NCBI GenBank assembly: GCA_004764695.1
Contig: SMSO01000031.1
Span: 1,526,436-1,590,435 of the forward strand
Source of the DNA: Schizochytrium sp. TIO01
Taxonomy: Eukaryota > Protista > Bigyra: Labyrinthulomycetes
Reading direction: 5' to 3'
DNA length: 64,000 nt
The position numbers were made by a program, and so were the translations under genes. The number at the start of each line of letters is the position of its first letter. The first letter of the stretch is position 1. Of this stretch, positions 3,512 through 59,376 are shown in pieces. The notes under the pieces were generated by a model. The model was given only the letters and a program-made list of their open reading frames with translations, did no database searches and was not told the origin of the DNA.

Positions 3512-6500
3512 CTATAAAATGGCAATGCGCTGAGCACGGTGGCGACCATTATGATTTTTCTTATTTCTGGGAGAAGGCGTGTCTGCAGCCCTCGCTGCTT
3601 CTCCATCTTGCCCTGGTGCCTCAACCTCCGCCGCTGACGATGATTTGACATCTGCGGATGATGGTACCGATGTAGATTGGTCTGGTGAAGTCACATGAGA
3701 CAATGGTGTTGAAGGAGGTTCATCTCCACGTTCGGCAGCATCAACAAAACGTTGATGACAATCAACACAAGCGTCAAAATTGTTGCACACCAAGCAGCGC
3801 CAACGCGATTTGGTGATTTGGCGCTCACAAAAATCACAAAAGAACTCGAGAGGCCCAGCTGGGGTGAAATCTCGCCCACGCTGGACCTTCTGTGAGGTTG
3901 AGAGGCCTAGCACCGGTGAATCCACCGTTCCATGGAACTCCTCTAGAAGATGGGGCAAACATTCCACGCAATAGTAAGGTTTGTCGCTCGTCGTGAGGCG
4001 CGTGCGGAGCTGCTCAATGGTTTCTGTGGCGCCCGCGCCTTTGGCCAGGACATCAACGTTGAGTCCTAGACGATGCAAGCATTTGAAGTGATAACCCCTA
4101 TCACAGCCGTCACAAAGGATAGTTGAATCGTCCATGTTACCCACCATCGAGCAGGCACGGCAACGAAACCTTTCATCAATATAGGCAGGTTCCGGCAGCT
4201 TTTTTGCAGCTTCTAAAGCAAGAGCACTAGCTTTACCTTGAAGCTGTGCTTCTTGCAGCTTTGCATGAGCCTTCGAAGCAACACTGAGAGTTGTTCGCGC
4301 ACGCTTTGTAGGCTTACTATTTTGTAACAAAGAGCTACCACTACTGCTCGTACGTTTCTGAAGCAACGACGCAGCAGCATTTGCCCGAGCACGCGATGAA
4401 GGGCTGGCACGTCCATCGCTACCACTAACCTCGCCCTGCGATGAAACCAGTGCCATCAATGAGTTGCTCCCTACAGAGGCCGCACTACCGCGGTTCGCAG
4501 AGGCCCGGCCACGTTGGCGTGCGGTACGACGAGTGCATGTTTCCAAATGGTTTGCAAAACGAGTTACGCCTACTTTGAGATTACAAAGCTGACACACACA
4601 TACTTGCTTGGATGTATCTGAGTCCACATTGAGATGTACATCGCGGTATGAAAGCACATCAGGTGCATCCTCATCATACCAACAGTATCTAGTTTTCCAC
4701 CGCCGATGTCGCTCAATATAGCTTTCAAAAGGTTGAGTGGGTTCAGGTGAGATTACGCTTGTTTCAATACCTCCATCTTGCCACTGCGGGGGAGCCAATC
4801 CAACCCGCTTAAGTGATGGCGCGGAAGCAGCGCCATTGCTAGTTGCTTTCCTCTTTGTTTTTTGTGAAATTTTACTGTCACGTGTTAATTCCTTCTTCAA
4901 GCTCTCTTTCGGATTGTTTTCTTGTTTCACTTCTTTCTGCTTCTGATGATCTTCGGGGGCGTTGAGCTTCAAAAATCTTTCCTGTTTTGTCGGGTCAACA
5001 AAAGATGACATCGAAGTCAGAGGCACCGGCATACTTGCTGCGCCACCTTGTGAGGCTTGTTTTGAGGTTAAGCCATTTGTCTTTGGCGCATAGTCAGTGA
5101 TGTTAGGTATAGCTGCGTTCCCCATCACCCCAGCTTGTCCACTAAATCCAACTACGGTGTGATTTTGATCAGGGGCCTCATTGCTTATCTTTGAGGCAGA
5201 ACGCTTTTTTGGTGCTGGCGTAACGCGAGGTGCCGGGATTACAGTCGCCGCATACACTGGCGCTGATTGTGTGGTTTTCTTTTTGGAATTGGTAGAAGAT
5301 CGTGCTTTGGATCCGTTACTGCCGCCACTGGTTCTGGGTTGTAGCGGCTGAGGACGAGGAAATGACTGCAACATTGTTGTAGGACCAATTGGTACCGATC
5401 GAATGTCGATCGGCTGAGCCAGAGGCAATGGGAACAGGCGCCGAGGATACTACATTAAGCGTAGACATAGGCAAAGGTCTCGGGGCCTTGGTTGGAGAAG
5501 GTGTTGTCTGTGGAGCCTTCTTTGACTTTGACCCTGAGGTAGCCCTCTTTGGTCCTTTTGGCGCAGTTGCTACAGCACTGTTCACTGAGGACGCAGGTAA
5601 TGCTACCATTCGCGGCTGCATAGACCCGAACGTTTGTCTCGCGTCAAGCGAAACAGGCGCAGGGTAATGATGCATAAAAGCAATTGGGTGAGCCATAGGT
5701 TGAGGGTGCACTCCGTAGTGCCCATAGAAATGGTTTGTCATAAAACTTGAATGATACGGCTGGGGTTGTTGTTGCTGCTGCTTCGCTGGCGAAGCCTTTG
5801 TGGCCTTTTTTGGTGCCTTGGCCTTTGTCGTTTTTGGTTGTGCTGGCTGTTTTGGCTGTTGTTGCAGTTTTGCTTGGTGCTGAGGCTGCTGCCGCGGAAG
5901 CGGCTGTGGAAGTGGCTGTGGAAGTGATTGTGGAAGTGGTTGTGGAAGTGGCTGAGGTTGCTGCTTTGGTTGGGATTGTGGCTTTGGTTGCGGTTGTGGC
6001 TTTGGTTGCGGTTGTGGCTTTGCCTGCTGGTGAGGCTTTGGTTGGGGTTGCGGCCTTGGTTGGGGTTGTGGCTTTGACTGCTGTAGTGGCTGTGTCTGCT
6101 GTTGTTGCTTTGATTGGGGTTGTGGCTTTGACTGCTGTACTGGCTGTGTCTGCTGCTGTTGCTTTGATTGGGGTTGTTGCTTTGGTTGGGGTTGCAGCTT
6201 TGCCTGTTGGTGAGGCTTTGAAGGGGGTTGTAAATTTAACTGCTGTTGTTGCTTTAATTGGGGTTGTTGCTTTGTCTGTTGGTGAGGCTTTGAAGGGGGT
6301 TGAAGCTTCGGCTGTGTTGGCTGATTTGGTGGAACGTGCTGTTTTGATTGCGCTTGTGGTTCTGGATGTAACTTTGGCTGAGGTTGTGACCTTTGTTGTG
6401 GTTGGGGTTGTAACTTTGGCTGAGGTTGAGGTTGCAGTTGTGGTGATGACTTCGCTTGCTGCTGTTGTTGCTTTTGCTGGTTCTGCTTTTGATTCTTGTG

Positions 6501-6571
6501 TTGTTGTTGCTTCTGCTGCTGTTGTTGCTTTTGCTGTTGCTGCTGCAAGATGTACTGCATTTGCTGGTTCT

Positions 6572-6603
<32 letters not shown>

Positions 6604-7076
6604 ATTTGCATTTGCATTTGCTGTTGGAATTGCTGTTGAATCTGCTGCTGCATCTGTTGCTGGAGTTGTTGTTTCATTTGTTGTTGAACCTGCTGTTGCA
6701 TCTGCTGCTGTCCTGGATTCGGCTGGGCTTGTATTCGCTCATGCAGCATGGCTGCTAAAGACGACGCATCAAACTGGGGCACCATTTGCAATTGTCTAAT
6801 ATGGCCCTGACTTTGATTGATGCTCTGGTTCTGTAGCAAAGCCTGGCCCTGGCCCTGACCCTGGAATTGGGTTTGACCTTGGGCTTGAACTGGGCCGTGG
6901 AGGCCCTGATCCTGCAGAAGCGGAGACGACTGCTGCGGTGTCCGATGTTGCGTCCATGCTGAGGCCAGTGCAGGGATTCCACGCAAACTGAACGCCTGTA
7001 GACTTGCCAGAGCAGATGCCGCCGCGGGAGACCCAGAGTCCGAAGACGGACTGCCCGAGGGCCCCTCCCCGCGCAT
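3512..7076 (-). CDS. Gln/Pro-rich chromatin protein with Sgf11-type zinc finger, PHD finger and ZZ zinc finger; split across two overlapping frames
   Basis: ORF 5316..7076 (ATG start, polyQ/QP repeats) overlaps ORF 3512..5428 (non-ATG start) in a +1 frame. The downstream ORF has CQLCNLKVGVTRFANHLETC (Sgf11/ATXN7L3-type finger), CRAC...ILCDGCDRGYHFKC...YYCVEC (PHD) and FCDFCERQITKSRWRCLVCNNFDACVDCH (ZZ). A 1-nt indel near 5430 or a 40-nt intron (5414-5453) would join them. Confidence 0.75.
5740..6710 (-). repeat. Coding low-complexity CAA/CAG polyglutamine and QPQ tandem repeats
   Basis: Long (CAA/CAG)n runs and duplicated units such as LQPPSKPHQQ x2, QSKQQQQTQP(V/L)QQSKPQP x2 and repeated PQPL units in the minus-strand ORF. 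Confidence 0.9.
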
Positions 7077-9044: not shown

Positions 9045-9674
9045 ATGGCAATGTGGGTAGCAAGCAGTGGTTCAAGGAGTACCGGAAAGCTCAAGCGTAT
9101 CTTGGCGCTCGTATCGCTTGTCGTATTGGTGCTGGTGGCGTTGAATGTGGATGCTGTCAAGGCTGAGGAAATTGATGCCGTTAATGTGGGCAGTGATCAA
9201 ATTTCGGACGATGATGAAGGAATCCAGGTTGACGATGATGCTGAAGAACACCAAATTGGAGAACCTGCTGCAGAAGCCGACGCCGATGAACAGCAGCAGG
9301 AGGTTAGCGCAGCCGAGGTTGAGAGACTTCAGAAACTATTTGCAAAGCTCTCACCTGAGTGCAATGAAGAGGTGAAGCTTGCCTACACGGAAGGCAAGGA
9401 GGTTTCTGACGAATGCAAACAGGAGGTCCAGATGATCATGCAGCAAGAAGCAACCCAGCAGGGCAAGCCCAAGAAGCCCCGCTCGGACCTCCCTGACCCC
9501 ACTGGTACCATTGTTGGCTTTGCTGTTCTTCTTGTCGCCGGCCTGGTAGCTTGGGGAGTCTACGCTCAGAAGAACATTATCTCTAAGATGCCTGAGTCCA
9601 AGCCCAAGAAGATCAGCAAGCAGAAGCAGCAGAAGCTGCGCATGAAGGAGCAGCGCAACGCTGGAATCCAGTAA
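9045..9674 (+). CDS. Uncharacterised type I membrane protein (signal peptide, acidic luminal region, one TM, basic tail)
   Basis: 209 aa with coding-like codon bias. Hydrophobic N-terminal segment ILALVSLVVLVLVALNVDAVKA, acidic region, two Cys motifs (LSPECNEEV, VSDECKQEV), TM IVGFAVLLVAGLVAWGVYA, Lys-rich C-terminal tail. Confidence 0.8.
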   Translation: MAMWVASSGSRSTGKLKRILALVSLVVLVLVALNVDAVKAEEIDAVNVGSDQISDDDEGIQVDDDAEEHQIGEPAAEADADEQQQEVSAAEVERLQKLFAKLSPECNEEVKLAYTEGKEVSDECKQEVQMIMQQEATQQGKPKKPRSDLPDPTGTIVGFAVLLVAGLVAWGVYAQKNIISKMPESKPKKISKQKQQKLRMKEQRNAGIQ

Positions 9675-11191
9675 ATATGCACTCCTAGGCTGCGCACGCT
9701 GTTCTGCTCTTTCATTCCTTGCCCTGTCCTGCCTTTGCTTTATCATGCTAAACGTTGCCCCGTCTCTGTCTCTGTGAGTTATACGGAAAGGAGCATTAAT
9801 AGCGCGAACATCACATCACAGCAATAGAATTTCTTATTGATTTTTGCGAAGGGTCGTGCAGGGCATAGAGACAACACATACCAGTAAGCCTTTAGAGGTT
9901 CTCTCACCTATTAAGGTAGCGTGTGCTCTTTGATGCGAATACCAAAAGGTTTTCCTCATTCTTGACACTGTCACTTATATTAGCCTGAGTAGGATATTTC
10001 TCATATACACTTTCACCATTTTTATATAAACTAATAAGATCATTAGAAAGATGGAATGTAAACGAAGTTCCTCATAATTTGTGATTCTAGTACCTCTTTT
10101 AATAAAGCAATTCCCCGTAAACAAACTTACATTTGCTCATCTTAGGAAAGTTTCCTTTGTCAAATCAGTCAAAGTCGATTTTTTTTTTTTTTAAATCTCA
10201 ATCTCAATCCAAATCCGATTTTGTTCGATATTTCCTATCCTAAATTTGATAACTCTCTAATGAATACAAACTGGAGCGATTTCGGCAATGCCATGGGTTT
10301 AAGAAACAATATTCTTTAGAGAAGCAAGACTGTTTACAAATGGGCGTATAATTCCTAACTTTGGCAAGATACCTCTTCTACTATGTCCTCGTAGATCACG
10401 TTGTATTGATCTAAACATTCTCCACCAAAGCAGCTATTCCATTAAACCTCCCTCCCTGGCATTTGCTGTGAGGCGCCACATTTGGCTGTTCTATCTACTG
10501 CCAAGCAGGCAACCTTTTCTTTTCAAAGAAAATTACTATAAAGGAATGCTGTTCAAGAGTAGGTAGGGTATCCACGGGGAAATGCCTGCGACAATTTTGA
10601 TAGTGGCACGATATTCACATCATACTGCAAAGAGATGCATAGGATCTTCAACGACAGCACCCGATTTAATCTTTGTCTAGCGATTCTTTCTTTGTTTCTT
10701 TCTTTTTTTCAATTTTAAAAATAAAACATAACAAATAAAGTTAATTGCTATGATAACGTCGTGTATTAAAACAGCTCTAGTGGTACATACAGAGTACTAT
10801 AGTAGTCTAAGTGCTGAAAAGAAAGGCAAACGGAGTCTTTATACCTCGAAAATAGCCAAAGAGAGTTGATTTTTCCCTTGCAGACCGTTTGATTTTCTCA
10901 AACAAATCCCTCTGCGCGCTTTGTTTGACGCAAACCAAGGGTGCTCGCGTTCCCTGCGCAGTCGCCCTCCCCGCTCAGCAGCTTCGGCGCAGCTACGAAC
11001 AATAAGTCGCGGAGGTTGCGACCGGGCAGTGCTCTCTTTGCTGCGAAAGCAAAGTAGCCTCTGCCAGATAGGGATACTACATAAATTCAACCCCAGAACC
11101 TGAGATTCGCGCTCCTGAAAACAAGTTCAGGTCACGCGCGTTCTATTTTTAAGGGGCCCCTCGAGTGAAATCTCTTGTGCAAAACACCGCC

Positions 11192-14100
11192 ATGGCGTAC
11201 CTGCTAGAATGCGATGGAGAGTCTGCTGTGAAGATTGCGATTTCCACAGCTTCAAGAACCATTGGTGGTCAACAAGATGAACTCGACGAAGTCCGTCGAG
11301 ACATTTTGGGCACTTCAGAAGGTCATAAAAGACGTCAAGAACAACACCAGCACGGGAAAGAAACCGTTGAAGGGTCTGAAGAGGTTCTTGGTCCTGACGA
11401 AAAACCACAATGGGAATATGAAAGTCCCGGGGAGAATGGCCAAAGCTATTTTGGACCCTTGCCGACTCGCAATAGAGCCGAGGGACAAACCCCTAAGATT
11501 CTCTACAATGCTGCAAACTGGCAACTGCTTGAAAAGGCAACCCAAGAGGCAGAGGTGATCTTAAAACGCGTGAAAGACTACCTTGGAGTAGATTCACAAA
11601 TCCCGCTCACGGCCTTGCAAGCTTTTGCTGCCGCTACCCCTCCTGAGTTCTTTCGAGCGCTCATCAACCGAATCAATCATGATGGGGTTAAAGTTTCCTT
11701 CAAAATGTTGGTCGGGTTTCTCAGGGTGGAGCTCCTGCTTCGTTTCTACCGTATATCTGCAGAGGATTTCAGACGTTTTCGCCGATATCATCAGGATACC
11801 CCAGACAGGTTCCATCACCAAATGTTCTGTAGTGAAATGGACAGTCTTCAGGATGACACAAGTCTTCTGCAACCCCAAAATCTAGAGGCGAATGACTCTA
11901 ATGAAAATCTTCTCTCCGCCATGGCTCGCATGCAGATGGACTCAAGTGAACACTGGCGTAAATTATTCTTTGTCCGGAATTGCACCTGGACGGTTCTTGA
12001 CTACGACATTGTTCCGGCATTGCCCAATTCACAAAAGAGCCGTGTTGAAGGCTCAAAACTGAAACAGCAACACGAGTTTGATCGAGCACACCTGGTGACA
12101 AGCGCAGCCTCCCAACTTATATTGTGTGGCAACTTAATTCCACCCAGCTCTTCCGGAGATGTAATGGCCTCAATAGAAAGTGTTTTGGCGTCTCTAGGCG
12201 AGGGAAGTGAGACATCAACCTCTGATTGCAACTCGCTAGAGCCGTTATCACATGGCTCTGAGCCTCGGGCTTTCCCAGTCACCTTCATCGACCACAGTTT
12301 TTTTGATTTTCTACGGGAGACGGAGCCTAATCTCACACCTCACGTTCTTATGAAGCAACTGGCCTCACAAAAGATAAAGGTCATTGGTACTATTGGTGAC
12401 ACTGGCAAAGCTTTTCCCTTTGAGGAGTCAGACAGTTTTCCTGTAAGTGCCACACTGCAAGAAAACAAACCTGTGATTGCATCACATGGTCAAGCCGCAT
12501 CTTTCCAAGCTTACGACTCTAACTCAACGCAATCAGCATATTTGGTTCGACTTAAGCAGCATGGCACGAGACGACTTTATACATCGTTACCTCTATTTCA
12601 AACAAATGACTGGGTCTTTGAGGCAAACGGTGTTCACATGAACAGTCCTTCCATCCCACGACTGCCCCATCAATCACCCATGGATAGTCTATCTCACACA
12701 GTGGACTCCGACGAGGAGAGATGGGACCGTATGCTTGCAGAGGTCAGAGAGCGCGTGTACATTATGGCCAGCTCTAAAGGCTCGGAAGACTGGCAACTTG
12801 CCGAGAAGTTCCGTGCCACAGAGCTGGTAACGTTTGCAATTATTAATTGTTTGAAAGCAGACTTTTTGAGTGATCCGAATCTTCAAGATTTGCACATTTG
12901 TGCCAAAAAGGCAGCATGTCTGCATTCAACAGTTGAGGTAGGTACCGACAGCAGGTTGGTAGAGAAGGTGAACAACAACAAGAGCACTGGGGAGGAGCCT
13001 TTGCATGACTCCATAGATGAAGCCACTGCTCCGCAGGTTGTCTCTAAAAGCACCAAAGCAGCACCGAGTTACTGGACCGACCGAGGGAGCCTTTGGACAA
13101 AGGCCAAGCTAATTGACGAAGCAAATCGACTTAACATTGTGCCTGCTGATGATTTCGACAAACTTACAAAGAAGCAGCTAGCGGTCATTCTTGCAACTTA
13201 CTACAAAGACCATGAGGATGCCATGAGTGACAAAGAGTCACCAAGCACCACAACCGAAGCAATGGGATCGAAGAAACGAGCGCGATCGTCGCGCGCAGCA
13301 TTAGAACAGTATTCCGAAAGGCGCACAAGGAAGCAAGCCCGAACTCAAACGGATGAAGAATTAGATCAAGGCGTCGATATTACCGAAGGCTCCAATGAAC
13401 AGGGTGGTGTCACAAAGCCTGGAGCAAATAACGAGGAGTTTCTCCCTGATTCTTTACAGGGTCGTCAGAAGTCCTTCCTTCGTCATCTTGTCCCTTGCTG
13501 GTTCCCTGAAAAGCGGGATATAAAAGGTGACTTTCAGAGCGACTCTTTTGATATGGGTAGACTTGTTAACTTTCTGCAGCAATGCCAAAGTTATCCAAAG
13601 TATCATTGCCATGCAGTGCATGATGGTGGTTTGATGATTCGCCGTGACGTTAAGTTCATGGCAAGCTCAGTCGACAAAATCGCAATTCTCTCTCGGGAAG
13701 TTTCTTCAGATGATTCACCAACCCATTTTGTTGTGCCCATCCATGTTCATGATGTGATAAACGAAAAAGCATTAAAATCTATTAAGGCCAGCGCTCAGAA
13801 ATATGGCGCTGTTTCTGAGACAAGGGCTGAGGAATCCTCTTTTGAAAACCTTATCAGCAACCCCCAGACACGAACTCAAATATTGCATCAGGCATCTCTA
13901 CTAGATGTAGACTACAGTATGCTTATGTTGACTGCAGGTGGTACAATACAGCAAGTTGTTCTCGTAGAGGTTCCCACGTCGACTCGCCTGTCCTGGCTGG
14001 ATCTCTTGCGTAGACTGCAAGTCGAGTACATGAATTTTGCCTATGAAGAGGATAATAGTCCTCATGAAGAACGTTCGTGTCCACCTTTGGTCCAGAGGTC

Positions 14101-15082
14101 AGGGGTATTGGCTAGTTCTCCCATCTACGGGTATGCAAGAGACCACTACACTATAGACCAACAACTGCAGCTCTGGCTCGCGCACCAAGCAGATGTCATT
14201 AAAAATGGCACACCACCCCCATGTCAGACGTTTTTGCCGCTTATTGCCCACGCCTGGAACAAAGTTATTGGGGGTGCTGATGAGACACGCAAGTCTCTTG
14301 TCATCAGCCGATCATATTCGCACTTGGCAGGAAAGGATTCTCATCGCTGGATAATAACGTTGGGATATATCATATACAATGCCTATCGTATATATCAGTT
14401 GCAGAACGTACCTTCTCATGCTGGGCCTACTCCACATGTTGGAAATCCGGTAAGCACCTTTGATGGTTTCCTGGATGAACTTCATGAATCGCTCAATGAA
14501 GCCGGGCTTCACCATTTGTTTCCAGAGCTGCGAAAAGACATTGACGGGGTAGTTCCGTCTATTCCAGCCAGTGTGAATGAGGCAATAGATTCGCTTCGGG
14601 TTGGAGAATCAGAAGTCCTGGATACTAGTTCTGACAAAGCTGTGCAGACATTACCAGGAGTTCCAGTACCCCCTGAAGTACAGAACGACCCTGGTACAGA
14701 GGTAGCTTTGCCTGGCGGGTCCACCAGCGACGAGGTGGTGGCTCCAGGGGGGCGCAAGTATAAAAAGATTCTTGAATACAACTCTAATTCGGCACTTCGA
14801 CAGATGCGCCTCGATAAATCACTTAAACATCACCGCCTTCAGTGGACTGCCTCGAGTAAAGGTGGCACAGCTCAACGAAGATGTATTCTGTGTTGTAAGG
14901 ACTGCCGACAGCATAAACCGCACAAGGATCGCAACCCGCGTGTTACGAGTTTCTACTGCTCAGTTTGCAAAGTAAGCTTGTGTCGAAAAGTCTGTTTCGA
15001 TGAATTTCACCGTTTAGAGAAACTGACTATTCTCCCATGCCAAGGGGGGCCTGCAGCGACCTCCAAGCAGAGCGCCCCGTAA
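11192..15082 (+). CDS. piggyBac-like (DDD) transposase-derived protein with internal YqaJ/lambda-exonuclease-like domain and C-terminal Cys-rich zinc ribbon
   Basis: Intact ORF of about 1296 aa from ATG 11192. piggyBac-like motifs in order: WTVLDYD (D1), TFIDHSFF (D2), KIKVIGTI, AWNKVIGGAD (cf. YNxxMGGVD, D3), WIITLGYIIYNAYRIY (cf. NAYILY). C-terminal RRCILC...TSFYCSVCKVSLC...CFDEFH matches the piggyBac Cys-rich domain pattern. Confidence 0.7.
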   Translation: MAYLLECDGESAVKIAISTASRTIGGQQDELDEVRRDILGTSEGHKRRQEQHQHGKETVEGSEEVLGPDEKPQWEYESPGENGQSYFGPLPTRNRAEGQTPKILYNAANWQLLEKATQEAEVILKRVKDYLGVDSQIPLTALQAFAAATPPEFFRALINRINHDGVKVSFKMLVGFLRVELLLRFYRISAEDFRRFRRYHQDTPDRFHHQMFCSEMDSLQDDTSLLQPQNLEANDSNENLLSAMARMQMDSSEHWRKLFFVRNCTWTVLDYDIVPALPNSQKSRVEGSKLKQQHEFDRAHLVTSAASQLILCGNLIPPSSSGDVMASIESVLASLGEGSETSTSDCNSLEPLSHGSEPRAFPVTFIDHSFFDFLRETEPNLTPHVLMKQLASQKIKVIGTIGDTGKAFPFEESDSFPVSATLQENKPVIASHGQAASFQAYDSNSTQSAYLVRLKQHGTRRLYTSLPLFQTNDWVFEANGVHMNSPSIPRLPHQSPMDSLSHTVDSDEERWDRMLAEVRERVYIMASSKGSEDWQLAEKFRATELVTFAIINCLKADFLSDPNLQDLHICAKKAACLHSTVEVGTDSRLVEKVNNNKSTGEEPLHDSIDEATAPQVVSKSTKAAPSYWTDRGSLWTKAKLIDEANRLNIVPADDFDKLTKKQLAVILATYYKDHEDAMSDKESPSTTTEAMGSKKRARSSRAALEQYSERRTRKQARTQTDEELDQGVDITEGSNEQGGVTKPGANNEEFLPDSLQGRQKSFLRHLVPCWFPEKRDIKGDFQSDSFDMGRLVNFLQQCQSYPKYHCHAVHDGGLMIRRDVKFMASSVDKIAILSREVSSDDSPTHFVVPIHVHDVINEKALKSIKASAQKYGAVSETRAEESSFENLISNPQTRTQILHQASLLDVDYSMLMLTAGGTIQQVVLVEVPTSTRLSWLDLLRRLQVEYMNFAYEEDNSPHEERSCPPLVQRSGVLASSPIYGYARDHYTIDQQLQLWLAHQADVIKNGTPPPCQTFLPLIAHAWNKVIGGADETRKSLVISRSYSHLAGKDSHRWIITLGYIIYNAYRIYQLQNVPSHAGPTPHVGNPVSTFDGFLDELHESLNEAGLHHLFPELRKDIDGVVPSIPASVNEAIDSLRVGESEVLDTSSDKAVQTLPGVPVPPEVQNDPGTEVALPGGSTSDEVVAPGGRKYKKILEYNSNSALRQMRLDKSLKHHRLQWTASSKGGTAQRRCILCCKDCRQHKPHKDRNPRVTSFYCSVCKVSLCRKVCFDEFHRLEKLTILPCQGGPAATSKQSAP

Positions 15083-15529
15083 TTATTTCCGCAATAAGGC
15101 CGGTCCCACTTTCACTTAATAGATGGCCTTTCTTCTCATTAAAAGTAACGTTCTATAAAGACACTACCATGGTTGGTAGATCCAGTAATGATGATTCCTT
15201 CTCTCGAATGTCCAGAACCTTTTCCGAATAGTATTAACCCAAGCTAAACCAGTACTAATTTTTCCAAAATAATTGACCGTGTTCTATATTAATTTGATCT
15301 TCTGTTTTCCTCTGCACACCACATCGGAAATTGTAGTAATATCTTTTGAAAGAAGAAAACGGACGAATCAAGGAATAAAATTTAAAATTTGTTATAGACG
15401 TACAGCTAGAAATTGTACAACAACAACAATAACAACAGAAATGATCACCTACTTGAATTCCACCCCTTCTACACTTGTTTAAGTAATAAAAATAGACAAT
15501 GTCGAATTGCACGTATTCTCTTCAAGGGT

Positions 15530-17326
15530 CTAAGCCTGCTCGGCGGTCAATGCTGCAAGCTCCTCTTGAGCGACTTTCTCACGGCGACTGGAATGACGCG
15601 TGGTTGAACTTGGTTCACGAATGTAGCGCTGCAGGAATGTCAACAGAATTGGTGAGAAGAGCGTCACAAAGGTGATGATGAACCACATGAACTGTGGATG
15701 GCTCTCGCGTACAGGAGGGCATTCTGCAAGCAAGTCTTGGCAAGACTCGCCAGCTGCTATAAGCGATTGTGGGCAGTATTTGCAAGTTGCATCACATTGG
15801 CCAGCGTAGGGAGCGGCACACTCAAGGCAAAAGGTACTTGCACAAGTTGCGGCACCTGCCTTGATCCATTCTTGGCAGTGGGTCGCACCAGGAGTGCAGA
15901 GTGGTGTAAAAGGACAGTAATGTTGCAGAAGATAACCGGACATGTACCCGGCAGGAAGTTTTGACAAAAAGAGTGGAGCATTCGCCAATGCCATGAATAC
16001 AGCCTCCTTCCCTTCTGGTGCCACAGACACCTGGTAATCAAGGAAACGTGGACTCCAAAGCGCCTCGCCGAGTGAAAGCTGCAGAACAAACATCATGGCT
16101 GCCCATAAGCCATTTGAGAAACTAAGGTAGAGTGCACTAAGTGCAGAGATGTAAGCACCCACGACAATTACATTAAAAGCATCCATGTGGGCCGTAGATG
16201 CAGTCAAAAGAGGAACCACGCTTATGATCACAACAGGATTAATTGCAAAAATCATGCCTTTGTTTACAGCATCGCCGTGAATGCGCACCAAATATTTAGG
16301 TAAGGTAGCATCCAAGTGACGAAACACACTGCGCAAATTCACCATGATGAGAGAGAATGAAAAAAAACGAAGGAATGACTTATCGCGGAAGAGCGTGACA
16401 ATTCCATGCAAACTGCTCTCGGAGTTGCCATGCTCAGACGAAGATCCCTTGCGAAGCTGAGGACTGTGTAGCCCGAAAGTGGAAAGAACAACACCGAGTA
16501 CACTAGCTAGCGCACAAGAGAGCATGATCATCCTGTTGCCAGTCATGAATGATGGGGTCCAAGGCGATGGCTTCCATGCGATGCCAAAGTAATCAATTAA
16601 AATACCAGTAAACACACCACCTGCATTCATCATGACATAGAACATGCCAAAGGCAAAACCCCTGGTTTCATCATTTGTAAGCCGTCTGACAGCAACAGCC
16701 ATCACCGGGATACCAAGGGCGTCCGACAGTGGAAGCAAGATATACAGGTTTAACTTGATGATGGAAAGTGACGTAGTCATTGCCATAGAAATTCTCGACA
16801 AGACTGCGAGAGCGAAACCAAGCTGCAAGCTTGACCGTACTCCCAGCATGTCTACATATTTACCCAGAATCATTCCATAAATGGATATGGCAGCACCATA
16901 TATGCCGTACATGGTGCCAGCATCTTTATCGTTCAAGTGAAACTCCTCTGTGAGAAATATGGTCACGAGCTGGCTCACGGTGAAGTAGCCAAATGCGTTC
17001 AGCAGCTTGCAGATAAGCACTACAAGAAGCTCGGGAGATTCACGCTGCAATTTTTTCAAATTGTACCACACGGAAGCAGATTTTGTGGTGCTGTGCTCAG
17101 GTTTCGGATAGTGCTTTCGTGAGTTGTTGCGCAACATATCCTCCACCTCGGCAGCCGCAGCGTTTGCATCCTCCCTAGAAGTGTGGAAACCACCCAGGGT
17201 GCGAGGACGACGCATCCTAGGCAAAGAACTTGACGATAGAGTGCCCTCGCGAGCGCCAAACAGCGCCCTAACCGAGAGCCTGGCAAAACTTGCGTTGCCA
17301 AACTGCACAGCTAATCGGGATGGCAA
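15530..17326 (-). CDS. Major facilitator superfamily transporter (POT/PTR-like); true start uncertain
   Basis: About 12 hydrophobic segments. MFS motif A-like GKYVDMLGVRSSL, RGFAFGMFYVMMNAGG, HLDATLPKYLVR, SLGEALWSPR, APEGKEAVFMALANAPLFLSKLP. Confidence 0.85.
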   Translation of the reverse strand: MPSRLAVQFGNASFARLSVRALFGAREGTLSSSSLPRMRRPRTLGGFHTSREDANAAAAEVEDMLRNNSRKHYPKPEHSTTKSASVWYNLKKLQRESPELLVVLICKLLNAFGYFTVSQLVTIFLTEEFHLNDKDAGTMYGIYGAAISIYGMILGKYVDMLGVRSSLQLGFALAVLSRISMAMTTSLSIIKLNLYILLPLSDALGIPVMAVAVRRLTNDETRGFAFGMFYVMMNAGGVFTGILIDYFGIAWKPSPWTPSFMTGNRMIMLSCALASVLGVVLSTFGLHSPQLRKGSSSEHGNSESSLHGIVTLFRDKSFLRFFSFSLIMVNLRSVFRHLDATLPKYLVRIHGDAVNKGMIFAINPVVIISVVPLLTASTAHMDAFNVIVVGAYISALSALYLSFSNGLWAAMMFVLQLSLGEALWSPRFLDYQVSVAPEGKEAVFMALANAPLFLSKLPAGYMSGYLLQHYCPFTPLCTPGATHCQEWIKAGAATCASTFCLECAAPYAGQCDATCKYCPQSLIAAGESCQDLLAECPPVRESHPQFMWFIITFVTLFSPILLTFLQRYIREPSSTTRHSSRREKVAQEELAALTAEQA

Positions 17327-50567: not shown

Positions 50568-52395
50568 ATGGGCGCGTGTAAGTTGCTGGTGCTGGTGATG
50601 GCGATGGCGATTGTGCTACGCGCTATCAGAGTCGATGAGTGAATGAAAGCTTAGGGTGTGATGGCTAACTGGTTGATTTTTATGATGTTTAATTCACTTC
50701 TTCCTGGGTCGGGATGGGCGATACGCGGATGATTGATTTCTTTTTCTTTCTTATGGTTTCCTTCTGGTTAAAACAACTCTTGTTCTGTCGTTGTGGGCTT
50801 GTTCTGTCGTTCACTGGTTCTTGTGATGCTGTGGCGATGGTCGCTGTTGGCTGGCTGGGCTAATTCTCTTTGCATTCACTCCCCTCGCCGTCACAACTAC
50901 TTACTCTTATGATGTCCTCTGTCTGTTTTTATTTTTCTGTTTTTTTAATTCGCGCGTGCCGTTCAATATGGTTCGCTTGTCACTTATGGTGTGTACACTT
51001 ATTATGCGGAAATCGACCTGGCATGCATGGTGAAATGATGGTTGGAATGGCAACGCGACTTCGTAACCTTATGCTTGCTCCTCTTTTGTTTACGGGTTGT
51101 GGAAATTGCGGACACGTATGGCCGACCAAATGGTGCTCATATGTCTTCCATCATCTACTTATTGTTGTAATTTATTCCTGCTGACGATAACGGTGATGAC
51201 GATGGATTAATTTAATTCATGCTCGTTGCTATGCACAGGCGGATCAAACCTGAGCGAGGCGGAGTTCCAAGAGAAGAAGCGTGACCAGGAGATTGCACGC
51301 CAAAATGCTCGCGACCGCACCAAGGACAAAAACCGGATCAAGCTTCTCCTCCTCGGAGCTGGTGAGAGTGGCAAGAGTACCATTTTCAAACAGATGAAGC
51401 TTTTGTACGGTCAAAATAAGGGCTTTACCGACTCAGAACTTTCGAAAGCAGCCTTAACAATCTACTCCAACGTCATTTCTGACTTCCAGGAGGTCCTCAC
51501 TCGCTGCGCAGAATACGGTCCGTATGATCCTGATCTGAAAAAGTCAGCCGAAGCTATCCTCCTCTTGCCGTACGAGGCACCAACCGCTTACATTGACTCC
51601 TCCATCGCATCTATGATGAAGGAGCTCTGGGAGGACGAAGGTGTCCAGCAGACATGGAGCGCACGTTCCAATTTTCAGGTTCAAGATGCCCTTGCAAACT
51701 ACATGGCCAAAATTCAAGAGATTGGTGAAGAGGACTATGTCCCTACTACACAGGACGTCTTGCTTACCCGCGTGCGTACATCTGGTATTGTAGAGGACCA
51801 CTTTCTTATTGAAGGCGTGGAGTTTGTAATGTTCGACGTTGGTGGCCAGCGTAATGAGCGCCGAAAGTGGATTCACTGCTTCGAAGATGTCACTGCGGTC
51901 ATCTTTGTTGCCGCCATCAACGAGTATGATCAGGTTCTGTACGAAGACAACAAGGTCAATCGTATGGATGAGGCTGTGATTCTGTTTGAGGAGATTTGCA
52001 ACTCAAAATGGTTCACGCATACTTCAATGATCCTATTCCTCAACAAAGCTGATCTTTTCCGCGAGAAGCTCGTTACCAGTCCGTTTCGTGTTGACGATGG
52101 CCCTGAGACTCGCTTTGTAGACTTCCAGGGTCCATTTGTAGAGCCTGGTACATCCAGTGCAATTATTGGAACACCCGAGTACGAGTCTTGCTACGAGGCC
52201 GCAGCCGACTATTGCCTGGAGCTCTTTGTTTCTCGTAAGAAGAACCCGAACAAGCGTGTTTACCATCATATCACCACAGCCACGAACTCCCGCAATATTT
52301 CAACGGTGTTTGATGCGTGTCGTGATATCATCCTCAAGACCAACCTCATGGCTGGTGGCTTCTTTGATTCCAACGATAAGGGTAATGTTCTCTAA
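50568..52395 (+). CDS. Heterotrimeric G protein alpha subunit, paralog 1 (2 exons)
   Basis: Micro-exon 50568-50577 (ATG GGC GCG T) followed by GTAAGT. Intron 50578-51238 ends in CAG. Exon 2 is 51239-52395, giving MGACGSNLSEAEF... Motifs GAGESGKST, RVRTSGI, DVGGQRNERRKW, LFLNKADLF, TTATN. 388 aa. Confidence 0.95.
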
Positions 52396-54231
52396 ATTGA
52401 GAACATATTGCTCCGCCGTCCTGTGCCACACATCTCCTTTTCTCCTAGATCTACTCTCTCTCTCTCTCTCTCTCTGTTGTGGCCCCCCATCCATTTTTTT
52501 GATTTCCTAAGCGAGGCAAGACGTGCACCGTTGAGCATTCTCAATGCTGTCCATCGTGCTCTCTTCTCTCCTAGCTGTGAGACGAGAGTACTCTCAAGCC
52601 TCCGGTGATAATATGCATCCTTATACAACATTGTTCCTCACACAGGTTGCAAATCGATGAGCCTGCTGTGCTGAGCGTTAGCCCTACTTTGGCTGCGTGT
52701 TTAGGTCCCGAACTTTCTTCTCTTTCGAAGCAAAAACATAAAAGAGAGTAACGAGACGATAGGAGTGTGGAACTGCTGGCGTAGGAGTGAAGAAAGAGGT
52801 ACAGACTATCCTTTGTACACCTTCAAAATGCCGTCGGTACTTTGTAGGCACCCTCTGACTTTGTTCTGCAGAATCACCCTTTGTTGTTTTTGTTGTTGTT
52901 GTGGCAGCTGTTGGTGTTTAGGTACTGCCGTCAAGAAGATGCTGAAGGCACCCTTTTGCTCGGTGGCAGGCAGCTGACCTATCAAGCTTTTTAGCGATTC
53001 ACCTCGTTTCTCGCGTTTTAGCTTCCCATCTCTTGTTTTTTTTTCTCTCTTTCCTCCCTCTTTTCATTCTTAGATATTTCCCATCTATTTCTGCCTTTTG
53101 TTCGGTCATAACCTACTTCGTTACAAGGTCGTGTGAATCACAAAGGCAAGATCAACTTTTGTCCGTAGCCAGAAATCCCTTCTAAGAGGAAAAGTTTTGT
53201 TTTACATGATAACTATATCACTTCAATCACCCATCTATCTACCCTACTGATGTATCTGCAGAAGTTCTTGCTACCAAAGTCTTGACTAGAGCTTGTATAG
53301 TCCTTCTATCTACAAATAATTATCCAAAACCGAGATTGTGTTTGAGACTATGCTCTTGCTCGTAAAAACTCGGATCAACATTTCGATGAAGACACGACAT
53401 TTGTCTATTTTGTTCAAGTCAAAAAGTCGATAGAATTTAACTGTAAAGCACGCTACATGGTGCATATCTACTTTGGAAACTCAGATTGTCGCTTTAAAAC
53501 TTACACAAGTTTGGGTTGAAATATGAGTCAAAATACGAAATAAAACGGGTAAAATTTCGACGCCTCTCCAAAATGTTGTACATATTCCCTTCTAAAAGAG
53601 ACAAAGATAATTATGCGCAAACTTTGAGCCTTATTATTGAGAAGAAAAAAAATCGCTCGCGCACCCCCAAATGCTAGTGTTACCAATCAAATACATTGGT
53701 GACTCTATTATCATAGGCTAAACGAACATATTTGTGATGTTACATTCTAAGGCTGCAGCCGAAGTAAATTCTGAAATTTAATTCTAGAGTAGCTCCTCAA
53801 GATTTAATTGTGCTTGAAATCAATTCTGCAGTGGTTGCATATGGAGTTTTGAGCTTGGCGCTTTAGTTTAAGTTCAACAGACAAACTGACATTTGGAAGA
53901 TGACATACGAATGAACGTCAATGTACGAAAGATAGAAAACACAAAAACAAGATGAATATTTAGTTTTTACAACCCTACCGGCCAGAATTAATGCACGCTG
54001 CTTGATATTGTTCACATGGGGAAATCAGCGCCACTGGAAATTTGAGGCAGAGCACATGATAAAAACTATTCAGGTAGAAAAGAAGAAGAAGAAGAAGAAG
54101 AAGAGGGGATAGAGGAAACATGAGCGAAGGTACGCGGCGCAACACAGAGCGAAGCAGAACTCCTACAGCTTGCTACGCACACTGTTAGACGGGAAAAGGT
54201 TTACAAATAGATGAATAGAAAGCTCTTTCTG

Positions 54232-55458
54232 TCATACAAAGCATTGACTTTGGACGAGTGCTTGAGTAATGATGGCATCATGGAGAACCCTGAGAATGTA
54301 CTGCATAGGTGTTGTATCTGTAGCATCGGTGACGTGAATATGTATATCTCTGTGTACTGGACCAGAATTTCCCGCTTCACGGTATAAGCCCTTAAGGTAC
54401 CGTGTAGTTGCGCGATAGACATGTTCAAACTCTGTGGTGCCATCTATAGCTGATGGAGTACCAGGCTCTGCAACTGGGCCATTGTAGTTTTGGTTTCGAG
54501 CGTCTGGTCCTGTTTCAATTTTGAAGGGGGTGTATTGAAGTTTTTCCCTAAAAAGATCACGTTTGTTGAGGAAGAGAATAATGATGGAGTTGTGAAACCA
54601 CTTTGACTCGCAAATCTCGCTGAAAAGTCGCAGAGATTCTTCTTGACGATTCACATGATGATCTTCTTGTAACGTTTGATCATATTCCGATATTGCGGCA
54701 ACAAACAGAACTGCAGTGACTTGATCAAAGCAATGAATCCATTTCTTGCGTTCACTGCGCTGGCCACCAACATCAATAATTACAAATTTGGCACCCTTCA
54801 CATCAAAAGTGGTTTCTGTGATTCCCCTCGTGCGCTGACGCACAAAAATCATATCTTGATTACTTGGGAGATAGTCTGGTTGGGCGATGCGATCAATATG
54901 ATTTAGAAACCACGAAAGCGCATCCTGTAGCTGGTATTTTGATCTTCGTGTCCAAAAGCTCTGCACACCAGGATCTTTCCAGACTTGTTTGAAAGCATGA
55001 CCAAGTTTCTCATCAATCTTCGCTTTGTCGTCGACAGAGAGGATTTTCTGTACTAGGGTTTGGTCTAAAGATGTATTGTTTGATTTGCACTGTCGAAGAA
55101 GCTGCTTGGTGGACTGAATAGTAAATTTGTAGATCAATTTGATTGCATCTTCCCGCTCCTCATCGGAAAATCCAAGCCGGTCAGGCCCATACATTATTTT
55201 CATTTGATTAAGAAGGGTTGTCTTGCCAGATTCCCCAGAGCCTAGCAAGAGAATTTTGATAGATGGCTCTTTGTGAAACGACCTGTGTATATTTGCCCAT
55301 TGAAATAAAAGCATCATTAGTTTCCCCTTGTTTTTCTTTGTTTGTATTGGTAATTGGGAGCAAAGTATCTTCACTTACATTCTCATGCTTTGCTCAATCT
55401 CCAGGTTTCGCTTATATTCGAGCTTCCGAGCATGTACTTGGCTTGAGCACGCCCCCAT
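54232..55458 (-). CDS. Heterotrimeric G protein alpha subunit, paralog 2 (divergent; 2 exons)
   Basis: Exon 1 is 55458-55379 (MGACSSQVHARKLEYKRNLEIEQSMR+AT), followed by GTAAGT. The 96-nt intron 55378-55283 has a CTAAT branch site and CAG acceptor. Exon 2 is 55282-54232. Motifs GSGESGKTT, RQRTRGI, DVGGQRSERKKW, LNKRDLF, TDATD. 376 aa. Confidence 0.92.
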
Positions 55459-57942
55459 CGTCTCGAGCTGCCTGGTGTCTTAGTTCTTGTTATTGAGATA
55501 GGTTCTATATATAGCTTTCGGCACGTGCAGAGAATGAGCTGTCGCAGCACGTGCAGCACGTTTGTTTTGTTGTTCGCCAGATAGAGCTGTTTGGTGGGAG
55601 CCCGGCCTTAACTGATCTTCGCAGAGATGAAGCGCTCTGCGATACTGCTGCTCCCGTGGTTCCTTCGTCTGTTGCGTGGTCGGTTGGCTTCGTGGGCAGA
55701 TGGACAGAAGGATGACCTCTCTAGTCGACCGACTCGAAGCTAGTGTTCTTTGTGATAGAAACTTGTGCTGGATCCAGAAAAGGTACTAGGGAAGGCCCCA
55801 GGAGCCTTGGCCTGTTGCGGGGCGGGCGAGGGGCCGTACCGACGTTCCTGAGCCAGTGGGCAACCTCTCCTACTTTGGCGACTTCTACTGCTGCGCCGCC
55901 GGGTCCACGGAATTGTTAACTTATATGTGATGATTCCCAATCTTCAATTTCCGAAGTTCTTTCTTTTGTCAGTATTGCATTTCTTCCTCTTCTCCCTCTT
56001 CCATGCCATTCTTATAGTTTAGAGTGATTAGAGCCCTAGTTGAAACCATGGTGTAACTTCGATATCATCTAAAAATAATATTGCTTGCTTAGTCTGCAGC
56101 TAGAGATTCCTAACGTTTCTTTATGAATAGAATAATAGTTTGAAAGGCGGTCGCAACAAATAAACTAGTCTTTGGAGCCTCCTATGTTGACACGAGTCTG
56201 GGCTTACGAGTACAGAAGCAAGAGAATTCGTGAGGACAAGGTTGTCTGCTCCAGCAGTTTTGTGACGAGCGCAGCGCCTCACTGGATTGTCCTCGTTTTT
56301 GACGAGGACTAACTCATGATTTCGATTGCTTCAGTGAGCCTGGGGCCAGAGGGGTGTGCGCCAATGCCACCTTTGATCAACAACTCGAAGGTTTTCTTCT
56401 TCTTCAATTTAATCGCATTACTCAAGCTGTTGAGAAGAATAACTGGGATGCTATTGGGCTAAGATAGCTTCACGCAGCTTGAAACATTCTTGCTAGGCTA
56501 TTCAGCATGGGGATTCGCCGTCGAAGACTTTTCGAATGGCAGTGCGTAGGTTAGGTACCTTCCTTTTTGGTTAAAACTATGCTTACCAAAAGAATAGCAC
56601 TAAAACTAGTAATAAATTAAATCAAATTTTTGTGATAATGAAGTTTACTCACCCTCCCGACATCGCAAATTGCAGGCCTCTTGCCAAAAAAGAGAGCGCG
56701 TACTAAGTCGCTGCACAACACATCCCCCCTCACGCCACTGCGGCGACCACAAAGCCCGCCTGATTGAAATGGTTTATTTACAGTTATCTCGTGATCCACA
56801 GAAAGGCCGTGCACGTGCGGCACCTTTAGAGGCTCCGTAAGAAGGAATAATGCGTGGTAGTGCTTATGCAGTAGTGCAAGGGCGAATCTTAAAAGGCTGA
56901 TTAGGTACTAGTTACGTATAATAATAGAAAGAAAGAAAAGCGGACTTCCTGGTGTACCTACCTAGGAGTGAAGGCAATCCTTCCTTAAAGTATGTGTAAT
57001 AGATAAGTCCTAAACCCGGAAAGGGTTACGGAGGGCACACTCAAGAGTATTACCTCGTAAAACTGAGAAGATCAGTTTGTATGATAAGTAGAGTAAGGAT
57101 AAGTCTATGTTGCCTTGTTGTGCGCGTGTCGTCAGACTCTCACTAGTTCACTAGTTTGTAGAGCTCATACTTAGTAATCCTCACACTTTTTGCCCACTAG
57201 TTAAAATCTGAGAAAAGAAAAACTGATGGAATAGCTGTCACGAATTTTCAATATTCTCGTAAAAAGAAGAAGTTGAGAAGTTCCTTTGTGTCACTTTCTG
57301 AAGCGAGACAGATTCACCAAAGATTCGCAAAGACTGTTTGCCAGAAGGTTCATGAGACAGTTCTACCATGTTCCGATTAATAGGCTTCAAATTAATGATT
57401 TGAAAGAAAGGGACTACTCGAAATGAATTGTGAATGGTTGAGGCAAAGAAGGTCAATCCTCAGCGACAACAAGAACGGGGATAAGAATAGTAATGAGATG
57501 AAAACAAAAACAAAAAAGGAAAACGAATTATGCTGTCGATAAGATCACGAGTTTTACACGGGTGTAGGCGAAAAAAAAAGAGAGCGAGAATGGTGTGAGA
57601 GGAAGAAGAGTAGGATGCAAGGCCCCACCTCGGGCATATTACGTGAATGAAATGAACTTGCAGAGAACTGGTTGCAACACAATTTGGGGTTCTTGTTTAC
57701 TTCGAAGTCGTTGAGAAAGAGAGAAACACAGGAGTAGTATTAGCGCAACAACAGGTTTAAATGGGATCAGGCATAGGGTCTGTATGGAATTGTGTATATG
57801 AACGAGCAACCATAGCGGATAACGATAAAGCGAGGAGGGAGTTTAACAGAGTCATCGCTGTGTAAGAATGTGTAGGTGTATATGTGAAAATTTGAATGTG
57901 ATGTGTGAGGCGCAAAATCAAAGGACAAAGGGTGTGTGGGGT

Positions 57943-59376
57943 TTACATGAATCCATTGTCCATGAGGTTGCTACGGAGCACGATATCCTTGGCGCTCTCC
58001 ATAACGACCTTGACCTGATCAGTATCTGTTGCTGCAGTGACCTTGACGTAAATCTCGCGTTGTCCCTTAGGAGAGTTGCTGCCGGCACGCTTGTATAGAT
58101 CAATGAGGTAACGGGTTGTTGCTTCGTAAACCTCCTCAAATTCAGGAGTTCCTTCCATGGAGGACGGCGAACCCGGGATGGCCTCTGGGCCATCGTAGTC
58201 AACATTCCGGGCCTCGGGGCCATCAACCACCTTGAAGGGTACAAACTGAAGCTTCTCGCGGAAGATATCCCGTTTGTTGAGGAAGAGAATCATAGACTTG
58301 TCACGGAACCACTTGGACTCGCACATTTCCTTGAAAAGGTTGACGGACTCATCTTGACGGTTGACAGCCTGATCCTCGTAAAGGACCTGATCGTACTCGG
58401 AAATGGCGGCGACAAAGATGACAGCGGTTACGTTATCAAAGCAGTGGATCCATTTCTTTCTCTCGTTACGCTGGCCACCAACATCGAACATGGCAATACG
58501 GACACCACCGATGTTGTACTCTGCTTCCACAATACCGGAGGTACGCACGCGGGCACGGAGAAGATCCTGGTTGGAAGGGAGATAGCTAGGGGCAGCAATG
58601 CGGTCAATGTTGTCCATGTACCATGCAAGAGCATCCTGGACCTGAAAAGAAGAACGCATTCTCCAGGTCTCCTGCACACCGTTGTCGGCCCACATGCTCT
58701 TGAGCTTCTCGCCAACGGTTTTGTCGATGGTGGTGCTGTCATCCATACCCATGATTTCGTCCGCAAGGTCGACGTCATCGGCGGCGGTGTTGCTCTCGCA
58801 GTTCGCAAGAAGGATCTTAAAGTTGCTCATGATGTTGGTGTACACGACCTTGACACCTGCCTGAAGCTCGGCAGGGGTAAATCCATGTTGCTCGGAGAAG
58901 AGAATCTTCATTTGCTTAAAAAGAGTGGACTTACCGGACTCACCAGCACCGAGCAAGAGGAACTTGAGTTTGTTAGCCTCTGCGACCTGCCTATAGATTT
59001 AATCCCGCCACACAAGATCACCGTCGTATGCAAATAGACCATCCACCACCGAACAAAAAGATCAGCACGTTAAACATTAAAATGCACATTACAAGATTGA
59101 GGCGCTCCCGTTAGTTTCCCTTTCCCGATTCTAGCTAGCCAAATTTTGACCCATGAGACAAGATGACTCCTGTCTGCATGAGCTGGTCAAGACACTAAGG
59201 AATCACACTCGATCAGGCTGATGATCATGTTCGTCTTCCCATTATTGTCTTTGGCCAAGCAAACTAACTCCAAGTTCATTTTTAACTTACTGTGCGCGGC
59301 CCTGGGCCTCAAGTTGACGGTTGCGGGCGGCCTCGGCCTGCTCCTCAGCGGACATGCTGCTTCCACAGGCTCCCAT
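57943..59376 (-). CDS. Heterotrimeric G protein alpha subunit, paralog 3 (2 exons)
   Basis: Exon 1 is 59376-59291 (MGACGSSMSAEEQAEAARNRQLEAQGRA+CA), followed by GTAAGT. Intron 59290-58991 ends in TAG. Exon 2 is 58990-57943 (QVAEANKLKFLLLGAGESGKST...RVRTSGI...DVGGQRNERKKW...NKRD...TAATD...MDNGFM). 377 aa with strong codon bias. Confidence 0.95.

Follow-up and report, generated by a model that had tools for sequence, protein, structure and literature searches.

An exonuclease fold nested within a piggyBac-type transposase core, and a probably domesticated member of the family in Schizochytrium sp. TIO01

Does a transposase that carries a second enzyme fold inside its own catalytic core still move, or has its host taken it over? 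The question is raised by one open reading frame (ORF) at 11192..15082 in a 64,000-nucleotide stretch of Schizochytrium sp. TIO01 (assembly GCA_004764695.1, contig SMSO01000031.1, positions 1,526,436 to 1,590,435), which we refer to as the window. A sequence-only reading of this ORF had proposed a composite element in which a piggyBac-like transposase, with its core of three catalytic aspartates (DDD), is coupled in one polypeptide to a YqaJ/lambda-type exonuclease. The nested architecture is real and well supported, and it is a variant of piggyBac, not a new kind of system. The coupling of two enzymes holds for the family of relatives but not for the window copy, which has no ends, is at single-copy depth and has its exonuclease residues replaced, and which is probably a domesticated, non-mobile descendant of an exonuclease-bearing piggyBac-type transposase family.

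The motifs quoted in the sequence-only reading are present where it had placed them, in a single stop-free frame, with the catalytic aspartates at D270 (nucleotide 11999), D367 (12290) and D1030 (14279). The gap between the second and third aspartates (D2 and D3), which had been put at ~650 amino acids (aa) against ~100, measures 663 aa compared with ~104 read off the piggyBat alignment. The sole Pfam match of the window protein alone is zf-Tnp_2 (E 9e-4, under the cut-off), and a PDB sequence search gave nothing under E 1, with a chance-level match to the piggyBat C-terminus at E 3; the motifs by themselves are therefore weak. The family profile (A3), however, finds piggyBat at E 1.1e-10, aligning colinearly in three segments (profile positions 31-225, 663-722 and 822-890). 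The first segment takes in the helices at the N-terminus together with D1, D2 and the GT motif, the second, 438 positions on, covers the D3 helix, and the third is the zinc finger. In the interval that separates segments one and two are matches to LHK exonuclease, to SAP domains (342-418) and to the exonuclease of mimivirus, R354 (468-514, E 0.0013). A narrower alignment (A4) gave no useful match against the PDB.

An AlphaFold model covering aa 100-1285 (model numbering plus 99 gives ORF numbering) was built from an alignment of 63 sequences and reached a mean predicted local distance difference test score (pLDDT) of 79.4 and a predicted template modelling score of 0.76; folding of the single sequence was uninformative (pLDDT 37). 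The model aligns with piggyBac (6x67) at Z 22.2 over 358 residues with a root-mean-square deviation (rmsd) of 3.6, ORF aa 114-1108 falling on chain 117-517, and with lambda exonuclease (1avq) at Z 12.9 over 199 residues (rmsd 3.4), aa 492-997 falling on chain 2-226. Foldseek ranks piggyBac first for the model, and YqaJ proteins dominate the viral fold list; an Atlas search with the middle region reached YqaJ clusters at 0.77-0.80 only, which we treat as a lead. The beta-rich piggyBac insertion domain is apparently retained (strands at ~aa 396-478) and the exonuclease comes after it, while a SAP-like motif overlooked by the sequence-only reading (aa 633-680) and a disordered basic linker both sit within the exonuclease fold. 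Model and profile together support a predicted DDD core interrupted by a whole YqaJ/lambda-exonuclease fold, inserted and not terminally fused, much as had been proposed: the core assembles from the parts flanking the insert, and the A3 profile matches piggyBat on both sides of the exonuclease and SAP matches and reaches the piggyBat cysteine-rich domain (CRD) at the C-terminus. The parts are arranged along the locus as follows.

11192..15082, plus strand: single-exon ORF of 1296 aa, piggyBac-derived with a nested exonuclease fold, in a gccATGG start context (stop-free frame)
11489..12631, plus strand: aa 100-480, end approximate, comprising the N-terminal helices of piggyBac, the RNase H strands that bear D270 and D367, and the beta-rich insertion domain (model, structure alignment, family profile)
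11999..12001, plus strand: D270, first catalytic aspartate; LDDDK in the family, here LDYDI (profile and alignment)
12290..12292, plus strand: D367, second catalytic aspartate; IDRGY in the family, here IDHSF (profile and alignment)
12665..14182, plus strand: inserted lambda-exonuclease/YqaJ fold, aa 492-997 (structure alignment, family profile, viral fold list)
13088..13231, plus strand: SAP-like helical motif within the exonuclease, aa 633-680 (SAP matches of relatives, profile matches to SAP structures, model helices; no Pfam SAP match for the window protein alone)
13232..13456, plus strand: disordered linker, aa 681-755, with a basic stretch that may act as a nuclear localisation signal (pLDDT below 50 at model positions 581-645, and sequence)
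14207..14515, plus strand: resumed piggyBac core, aa 1006-1108, with the helix of D1030 (third catalytic aspartate, nucleotide 14279) and later helices (profile, structure alignment)
14873..15019, plus strand: C-terminal cysteine-rich zinc finger of the piggyBac CRD type, with 15/15 family-conserved columns retained (Pfam, profile)
10860..15272, entered on the plus strand: approximate extent of RNA-like contigs from three studies, a possible transcription unit; the contigs themselves carry no strand

The protein search was exhaustive over 1.84 billion representatives and returned 107 proteins at E<=0.001, the window protein itself included, with 31 others of at least 700 aa; because this many proteins match, support for the motifs lies far above chance. 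They have in common the order LDDDK, IDRGY, GT, WFLARxF, SAP-like motif, G-xx-N-E, GLL...SPDG, LEIKT, YRxQxxHH, WNKxxGxVD and a Cys/His finger, and the full-length aligned rows are 15-26% identical to the window protein. One relative (P0036) matches DDE_Tnp_1_7 over the cut-off (E 2.4e-10), several match SAP and one matches YqaJ weakly; the window protein has no match to Pfam PF09588 (YqaJ), for which the best relative scores 17.2 bits against a gathering score of 22. The relatives with assigned organisms come from Skeletonema dohrnii, S. menzelii, Thalassiosira oceanica, Hondaea fermentalgiana and Plasmodiophora brassicae, and an intact relative matches a 56-member eukaryotic Atlas cluster at 0.98. 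Word-seeded protein searches added at most one relative beyond the cluster of the window protein itself, and no shorter relative.

To score catalytic residues we used 29 aligned relatives picked as long hits, two of which belong to one 90% cluster, giving 30 rows with the window protein. The DDD triad and the exonuclease R, E, D, E and K are all kept in 19 of the 29 (diatoms, Hondaea, Plasmodiophora and others), the five exonuclease residues in 25, and the 5'-phosphate pocket (equivalents of lambda R28, T33, S35, S117 and Q157) in 25-28; the D2-D3 spacing is 481-834 in every non-truncated row. Four long relatives with open frames (P0010, P0035, P0068 and P0071) have lost both catalytic sets. 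For P0035 and for P0071 another member of exactly the same length exists, and the two lie apart on the tree, so that these may be independent domestications. One further relative, P0066, is 2180 aa long and has at its N-terminus a haem peroxidase domain (PF00141, E 4.6e-16) joined to a family member, possibly through a gene-calling fusion or an insertion. The tree (28 rows, quick LG+G4, unrooted, built without classical piggyBac rows) puts the window protein inside a 99-supported group of 16 with no close partner; its terminal branch is 1.45 against a median of 1.07, and its exact place is unsure because of long branches.

Are these proteins, then, transposases of mobile elements? A metagenome scan with the narrower alignment gave 4 loci out of 197 pattern matches. 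One of them (L002) has a perfect 10-bp inverted repeat, CCTTAGTGCA...TGCACTAAGG, that starts with CC and ends with GG; ATAT flanks it at either end, subterminal repeats are present as well, and at this one locus the ends and the duplication support a mobile family. The element (L002:116-3941) is internally deleted and frameshifted, the exonuclease and the D3 region are missing, and its subterminal repeats are of the GGACCCA type. A second locus (L001) carries an intact frame of 1248 codons; an inverted pair lies close to the right end of this locus, and the contig does not include the left end. Two features of these loci may be recorded alongside, namely ~800 bp of unrelated-looking sequence ahead of the ORF in L002, and the inverted pair of L001 (L001:4984-5068), which is 31 nt long and akin to the subterminal pair of L002.

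At the window locus we found no such ends. No inverted match between the upstream and downstream flanks of the ORF stood above dinucleotide shuffles at lengths 10-20 (28-92 of 100 shuffles equalled the best), no CC...GG end bounded by a duplication and no TTAA duplication were found in the window, and there is no second copy within its 64 kb. The best AT-rich inverted pair (10521/15331) was considered as element ends and set aside as not above shuffles. The stretch is present in 20 sequencing runs from 12 studies, 8 runs of which were compared, copy number being taken as contig depth over the one locus. In three DNA runs (X6, X15 and X16) the depth of the ORF equals that of its flanks, contigs cross from the ORF into the neighbouring major facilitator superfamily (MFS) gene, and no joint skips the ORF. 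Run X7 has no listed contig over 10457-15110, but this gap was not taken as an empty site because 0.88 of the words are present in that run. With no ends, single-copy depth and a fixed locus, the window copy is likely not a mobile element.

The catalytic state of the window protein differs between its two enzymes. The transposase retains D270, D367, D1030 and the W-N-K helix. In the exonuclease, where lambda numbering was assigned to the window residues by motif and not from a printed structural alignment, the equivalent of D119 is kept as D828, the equivalent of R28 is E538, that of S35 is also replaced, that of E85 is D784 (or S783 in an alternative register), and E129 and K131 of the E-x-K motif have become H851 and H853. 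The sequence-only reading had located the E-x-K position correctly at VVPIHVH, the residues there being these two histidines; its proposed counterpart of MxxG, FDMG, does not hold, the G-xxx-N-E motif aligning instead a few residues upstream at aa 779-784. According to the available text of PMC3118119 and PMC3239189, Asp119 and Glu129 are metal ligands, Arg28 binds the 5'-phosphate and Lys131 is the proposed base. The window protein does not have the full set of catalytic D...E-x-K and 5'-phosphate arginine. As the Lys-to-Ala mutant of LHK-Exo retains ~15% activity (PMC3239189, in the portion available), the argument for a dead enzyme rests on the joint loss of residues, and by this argument the exonuclease is probably dead. 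The H-x-H at window 13742-13750 lies beside the retained D828, with which it might form a new metal site.

Erosion of the transposase is seen around the retained aspartates. Retention of family-conserved columns is the lowest of all domains around D1-D2, at 10/30, and highest in the zinc finger, at 15/15; the insertion domain (9/17), the exonuclease (9/16 and 29/46) and D3 (13/21) stand between. In 12 intact relatives whose sequence spans D1-D2, 24-30 of 30-36 columns survive there, and in the 5'-truncated P0004 18/30. Residues next to D1 and D2 that hardly vary among mobile members have changed, from DDDK to DYDI and from DRGY to DHSF. The pattern points to an eroded site, and transposase activity is probably absent.

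Polymorphism at the locus indicates constraint. Sites were pooled from the differences listed, which were 40 of 101 in one run set and all 30 in the other, and within the ORF the changes at 26 sites divide into 14 silent and 12 replacement. The resulting ratio of replacement to silent polymorphism (pN/pS) among these within-species differences is 0.25, or 0.36 under a six-fold transition bias (p 0.0005-0.008). No stop-making change is among the differences listed, and the indels listed are one 3-nt in-frame insertion within the ORF compared with eight non-triplet indels in the flanks, outside coding frames. Three RNA-like contig sets start at 10860, 10877 and 11018 and end at 15233, 15263 and 15272, spanning the ORF with no skipped part and no joints, where DNA runs continue beyond; a fourth RNA-like run (X12) passes both ends, and the RNA nature of all these runs is a guess. 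Taken together they are a weak hint of an unspliced transcript over the ORF.

How might such a protein have worked, and what might it do now? In the ancestral element the DDD core would cut and paste as piggyBac does, integrating into a 4-bp palindrome, while the tethered exonuclease would grip the 5'-phosphorylated donor ends left by excision and resect them. Resection would block the seamless re-ligation typical of piggyBac and shift repair to homology-directed gap filling from the sister copy, which would restore the donor copy and so give a net gain of copies. Exonuclease action on a free end is supported because the family conserves the 5'-phosphate pocket (compare PMC3239189). In the window copy, because the exonuclease appears dead and the transposase site eroded, the host would most likely use the product as a nuclear DNA-binding protein, built of zinc finger, SAP-like motif and the scaffold of the transposase; such a protein might, for instance, bind related transposases or poison them, or serve as a chromatin factor. 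Precedents are described in the available text of PMC5381638, where domesticated piggyBacs have unconserved triads under purifying selection and KOBUTA inactivates Uribo through heterodimers.

A different mechanism can be considered for the family alone, apart from how the window copy is read: the inserted nuclease might cut or trim the non-transferred strand at the transposon ends instead of the donor flanks. In Tn7, TnsA beside TnsB is a precedent for pairing a PD-(D/E)XK nuclease with a DDE enzyme, and here the nuclease is tethered right beside the DDD site. However, the 5'-phosphate pocket conserved in the family is that of processive exonucleases that load at ends, and this pocket, the piggyBac insertion domain and the palindromic 4-bp duplication all fit ordinary piggyBac hairpin chemistry, in which a second nuclease is not needed. 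This makes such TnsA-like trimming possible though doubtful, given the family.

For the window copy, the alternatives to domestication as a non-catalytic protein divide by what is thought to survive. A host that dropped only the exonuclease and kept a live DDD endonuclease, cutting or rearranging its own DNA at specific sites as PiggyMac or TPB2 does, would explain the retention of three aspartates, the W-N-K helix and the entire zinc finger in a complete modelled core (Z 22.2); multiplying the local retention of 10/30 and 13/21, the chance of all three aspartates surviving is ~0.07. With the near-invariant neighbours of D1 and D2 changed and retention lowest of all domains just there, we regard a live endonuclease as unlikely. 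A fuller version, quite unlikely as a whole, would combine an undescribed protist piggyBac lineage using a built-in 5'-to-3' exonuclease for copy-gaining transposition with a host-tamed member whose exonuclease has been switched off (E-x-K to H-x-H) and whose DDD site still works, a PiggyMac-like DNA-rearranging enzyme outside ciliates. A fossil transposon with decayed ends and no host role would fit the long branch, the two eroded active sites and the failure to find an orthologue, but its frame would have to have stayed open by luck over 3.9 kb despite the loss of two-thirds of the D1-D2 conserved columns and all end repeats, and against pN/pS values of 0.25-0.36 and listed non-triplet indels that fall outside the ORF only; this is very unlikely. 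Least credible is the possibility implied by the earlier reading, that the element is autonomous and can still move by means of cryptic ends. The full-length ORF, the DDD residues and zinc finger, and the mobility of relatives such as L002 are in its favour, yet no inverted repeat stands above chance, no CC...GG ends with a duplication are present, and single-copy depth comes with identical flanks in three DNA data sets and no ORF-skipping joint, so that continued mobility can be given hardly any credence.

Domestication of the window copy remains the reading that we favour, and several points weigh against it. All three of its aspartates survive, an unusual state if the protein has a purely non-catalytic role, and the window copy alone among the 30 rows has kept DDD and lost the exonuclease. 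The selection test consists of 26 within-species sites, with 40 of the 101 differences listed in the one run set, and single-copy status comes from contig depth at one locus and not from a whole-genome count. Protein searches, from which sister species may be absent, found no orthologue in another species, the nearest proteins being ~25-30% identical transposases, and this negative result counts against a long-standing domestication with orthologues at syntenic loci.

Compared with known systems, the window protein has the same fold over the core as piggyBac of Trichoplusia ni (6x67) and piggyBat (9c0f), at Z 22.2 and 18.5, and the same order of D1, D2, GT, D3 helix and CRD, and the relative L002 adds CC...GG ends with a 4-bp palindromic duplication. 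It differs in the ~510 aa of exonuclease and SAP-like motif inserted before the D3 helix, and the L002 duplication is ATAT and not TTAA; the window copy has no ends. With the domesticated piggyBacs (PGBD1-5, KOBUTA, PiggyMac and TPB2), as portrayed in the available part of PMC5381638, it has in common a single copy, no terminal repeats, purifying selection and an eroded catalytic region; unlike them it comes from an exonuclease-bearing lineage, and no cross-species orthologue was found. The same text describes extra domains in domesticated piggyBacs that include no nuclease, and the word 'nuclease' does not occur in it. The whole fold of lambda exonuclease, LHK-Exo and mimivirus R354 is present in the window model (Z 12.9, 11.6 and 10.9), and the family keeps the equivalents of W, R28, T33, S35, E85, S117, D119, E129, K131 and Q157; in contrast to lambda exonuclease the fold is embedded in a transposase and split by the SAP-like motif and linker, and the window copy has no R28, S35, E129 or K131.

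Eukaryotic DNA transposons with a YqaJ/lambda-type nuclease are already described, ISL2EU and KolobokE among them (PMC4482050, PMC4122938 and PMC9587614, in the sections available). ISL2EU, as presented there, pairs a THAP-DDE transposase with a YqaJ nuclease that a second ORF encodes, whereas the window has one ORF with no THAP match and a piggyBac fold; in KolobokE the nuclease is downstream of the Kolobok transposase domain, whereas here it is upstream of the D3 helix in a piggyBac core. Our literature search, with Repbase outside the comparison, found no description of a piggyBac with a nested YqaJ/lambda exonuclease. The exonuclease-bearing family may already be catalogued in Repbase, which lists subgroups named piggyBacA and piggyBacX.

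The ORF is flanked by a 209-aa membrane-type ORF (9045-9674) on one side and a convergent MFS transporter (15530-17326) on the other. Its GC content of 0.48 (0.45 at third codon positions) is inside the range of neighbouring genes and has no discriminating power. Further neighbours in the window are an ion channel, a TAF5-like WD40 protein, a Cid1-type polymerase and three G-alpha genes, and by these neighbours the host is an intron-poor eukaryote. The three G-protein alpha subunit genes lie in mixed orientations within less than 8 kb (window 51226-58956). Elsewhere, two overlapping minus-strand ORFs at window 3512-7076, one with Sgf11, PHD and ZZ fingers and the other strongly skewed and without a Pfam match, are possibly one gene.

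The role of YqaJ-type nucleases in eukaryotic DNA transposons is stated as unknown in the available text of PMC4482050, and because the nuclease here sits inside the best-studied and most used transposase scaffold, the question becomes directly testable by single point mutants. The family also indicates that a piggyBac core tolerates a 500-residue insert beside its active site, which is relevant to transposase engineering, and the ATAT duplication of L002 hints at a different target preference. The window copy is likely an independent domestication in which two active sites have eroded differently, and the four long relatives without either site suggest that taming has occurred repeatedly in this family.

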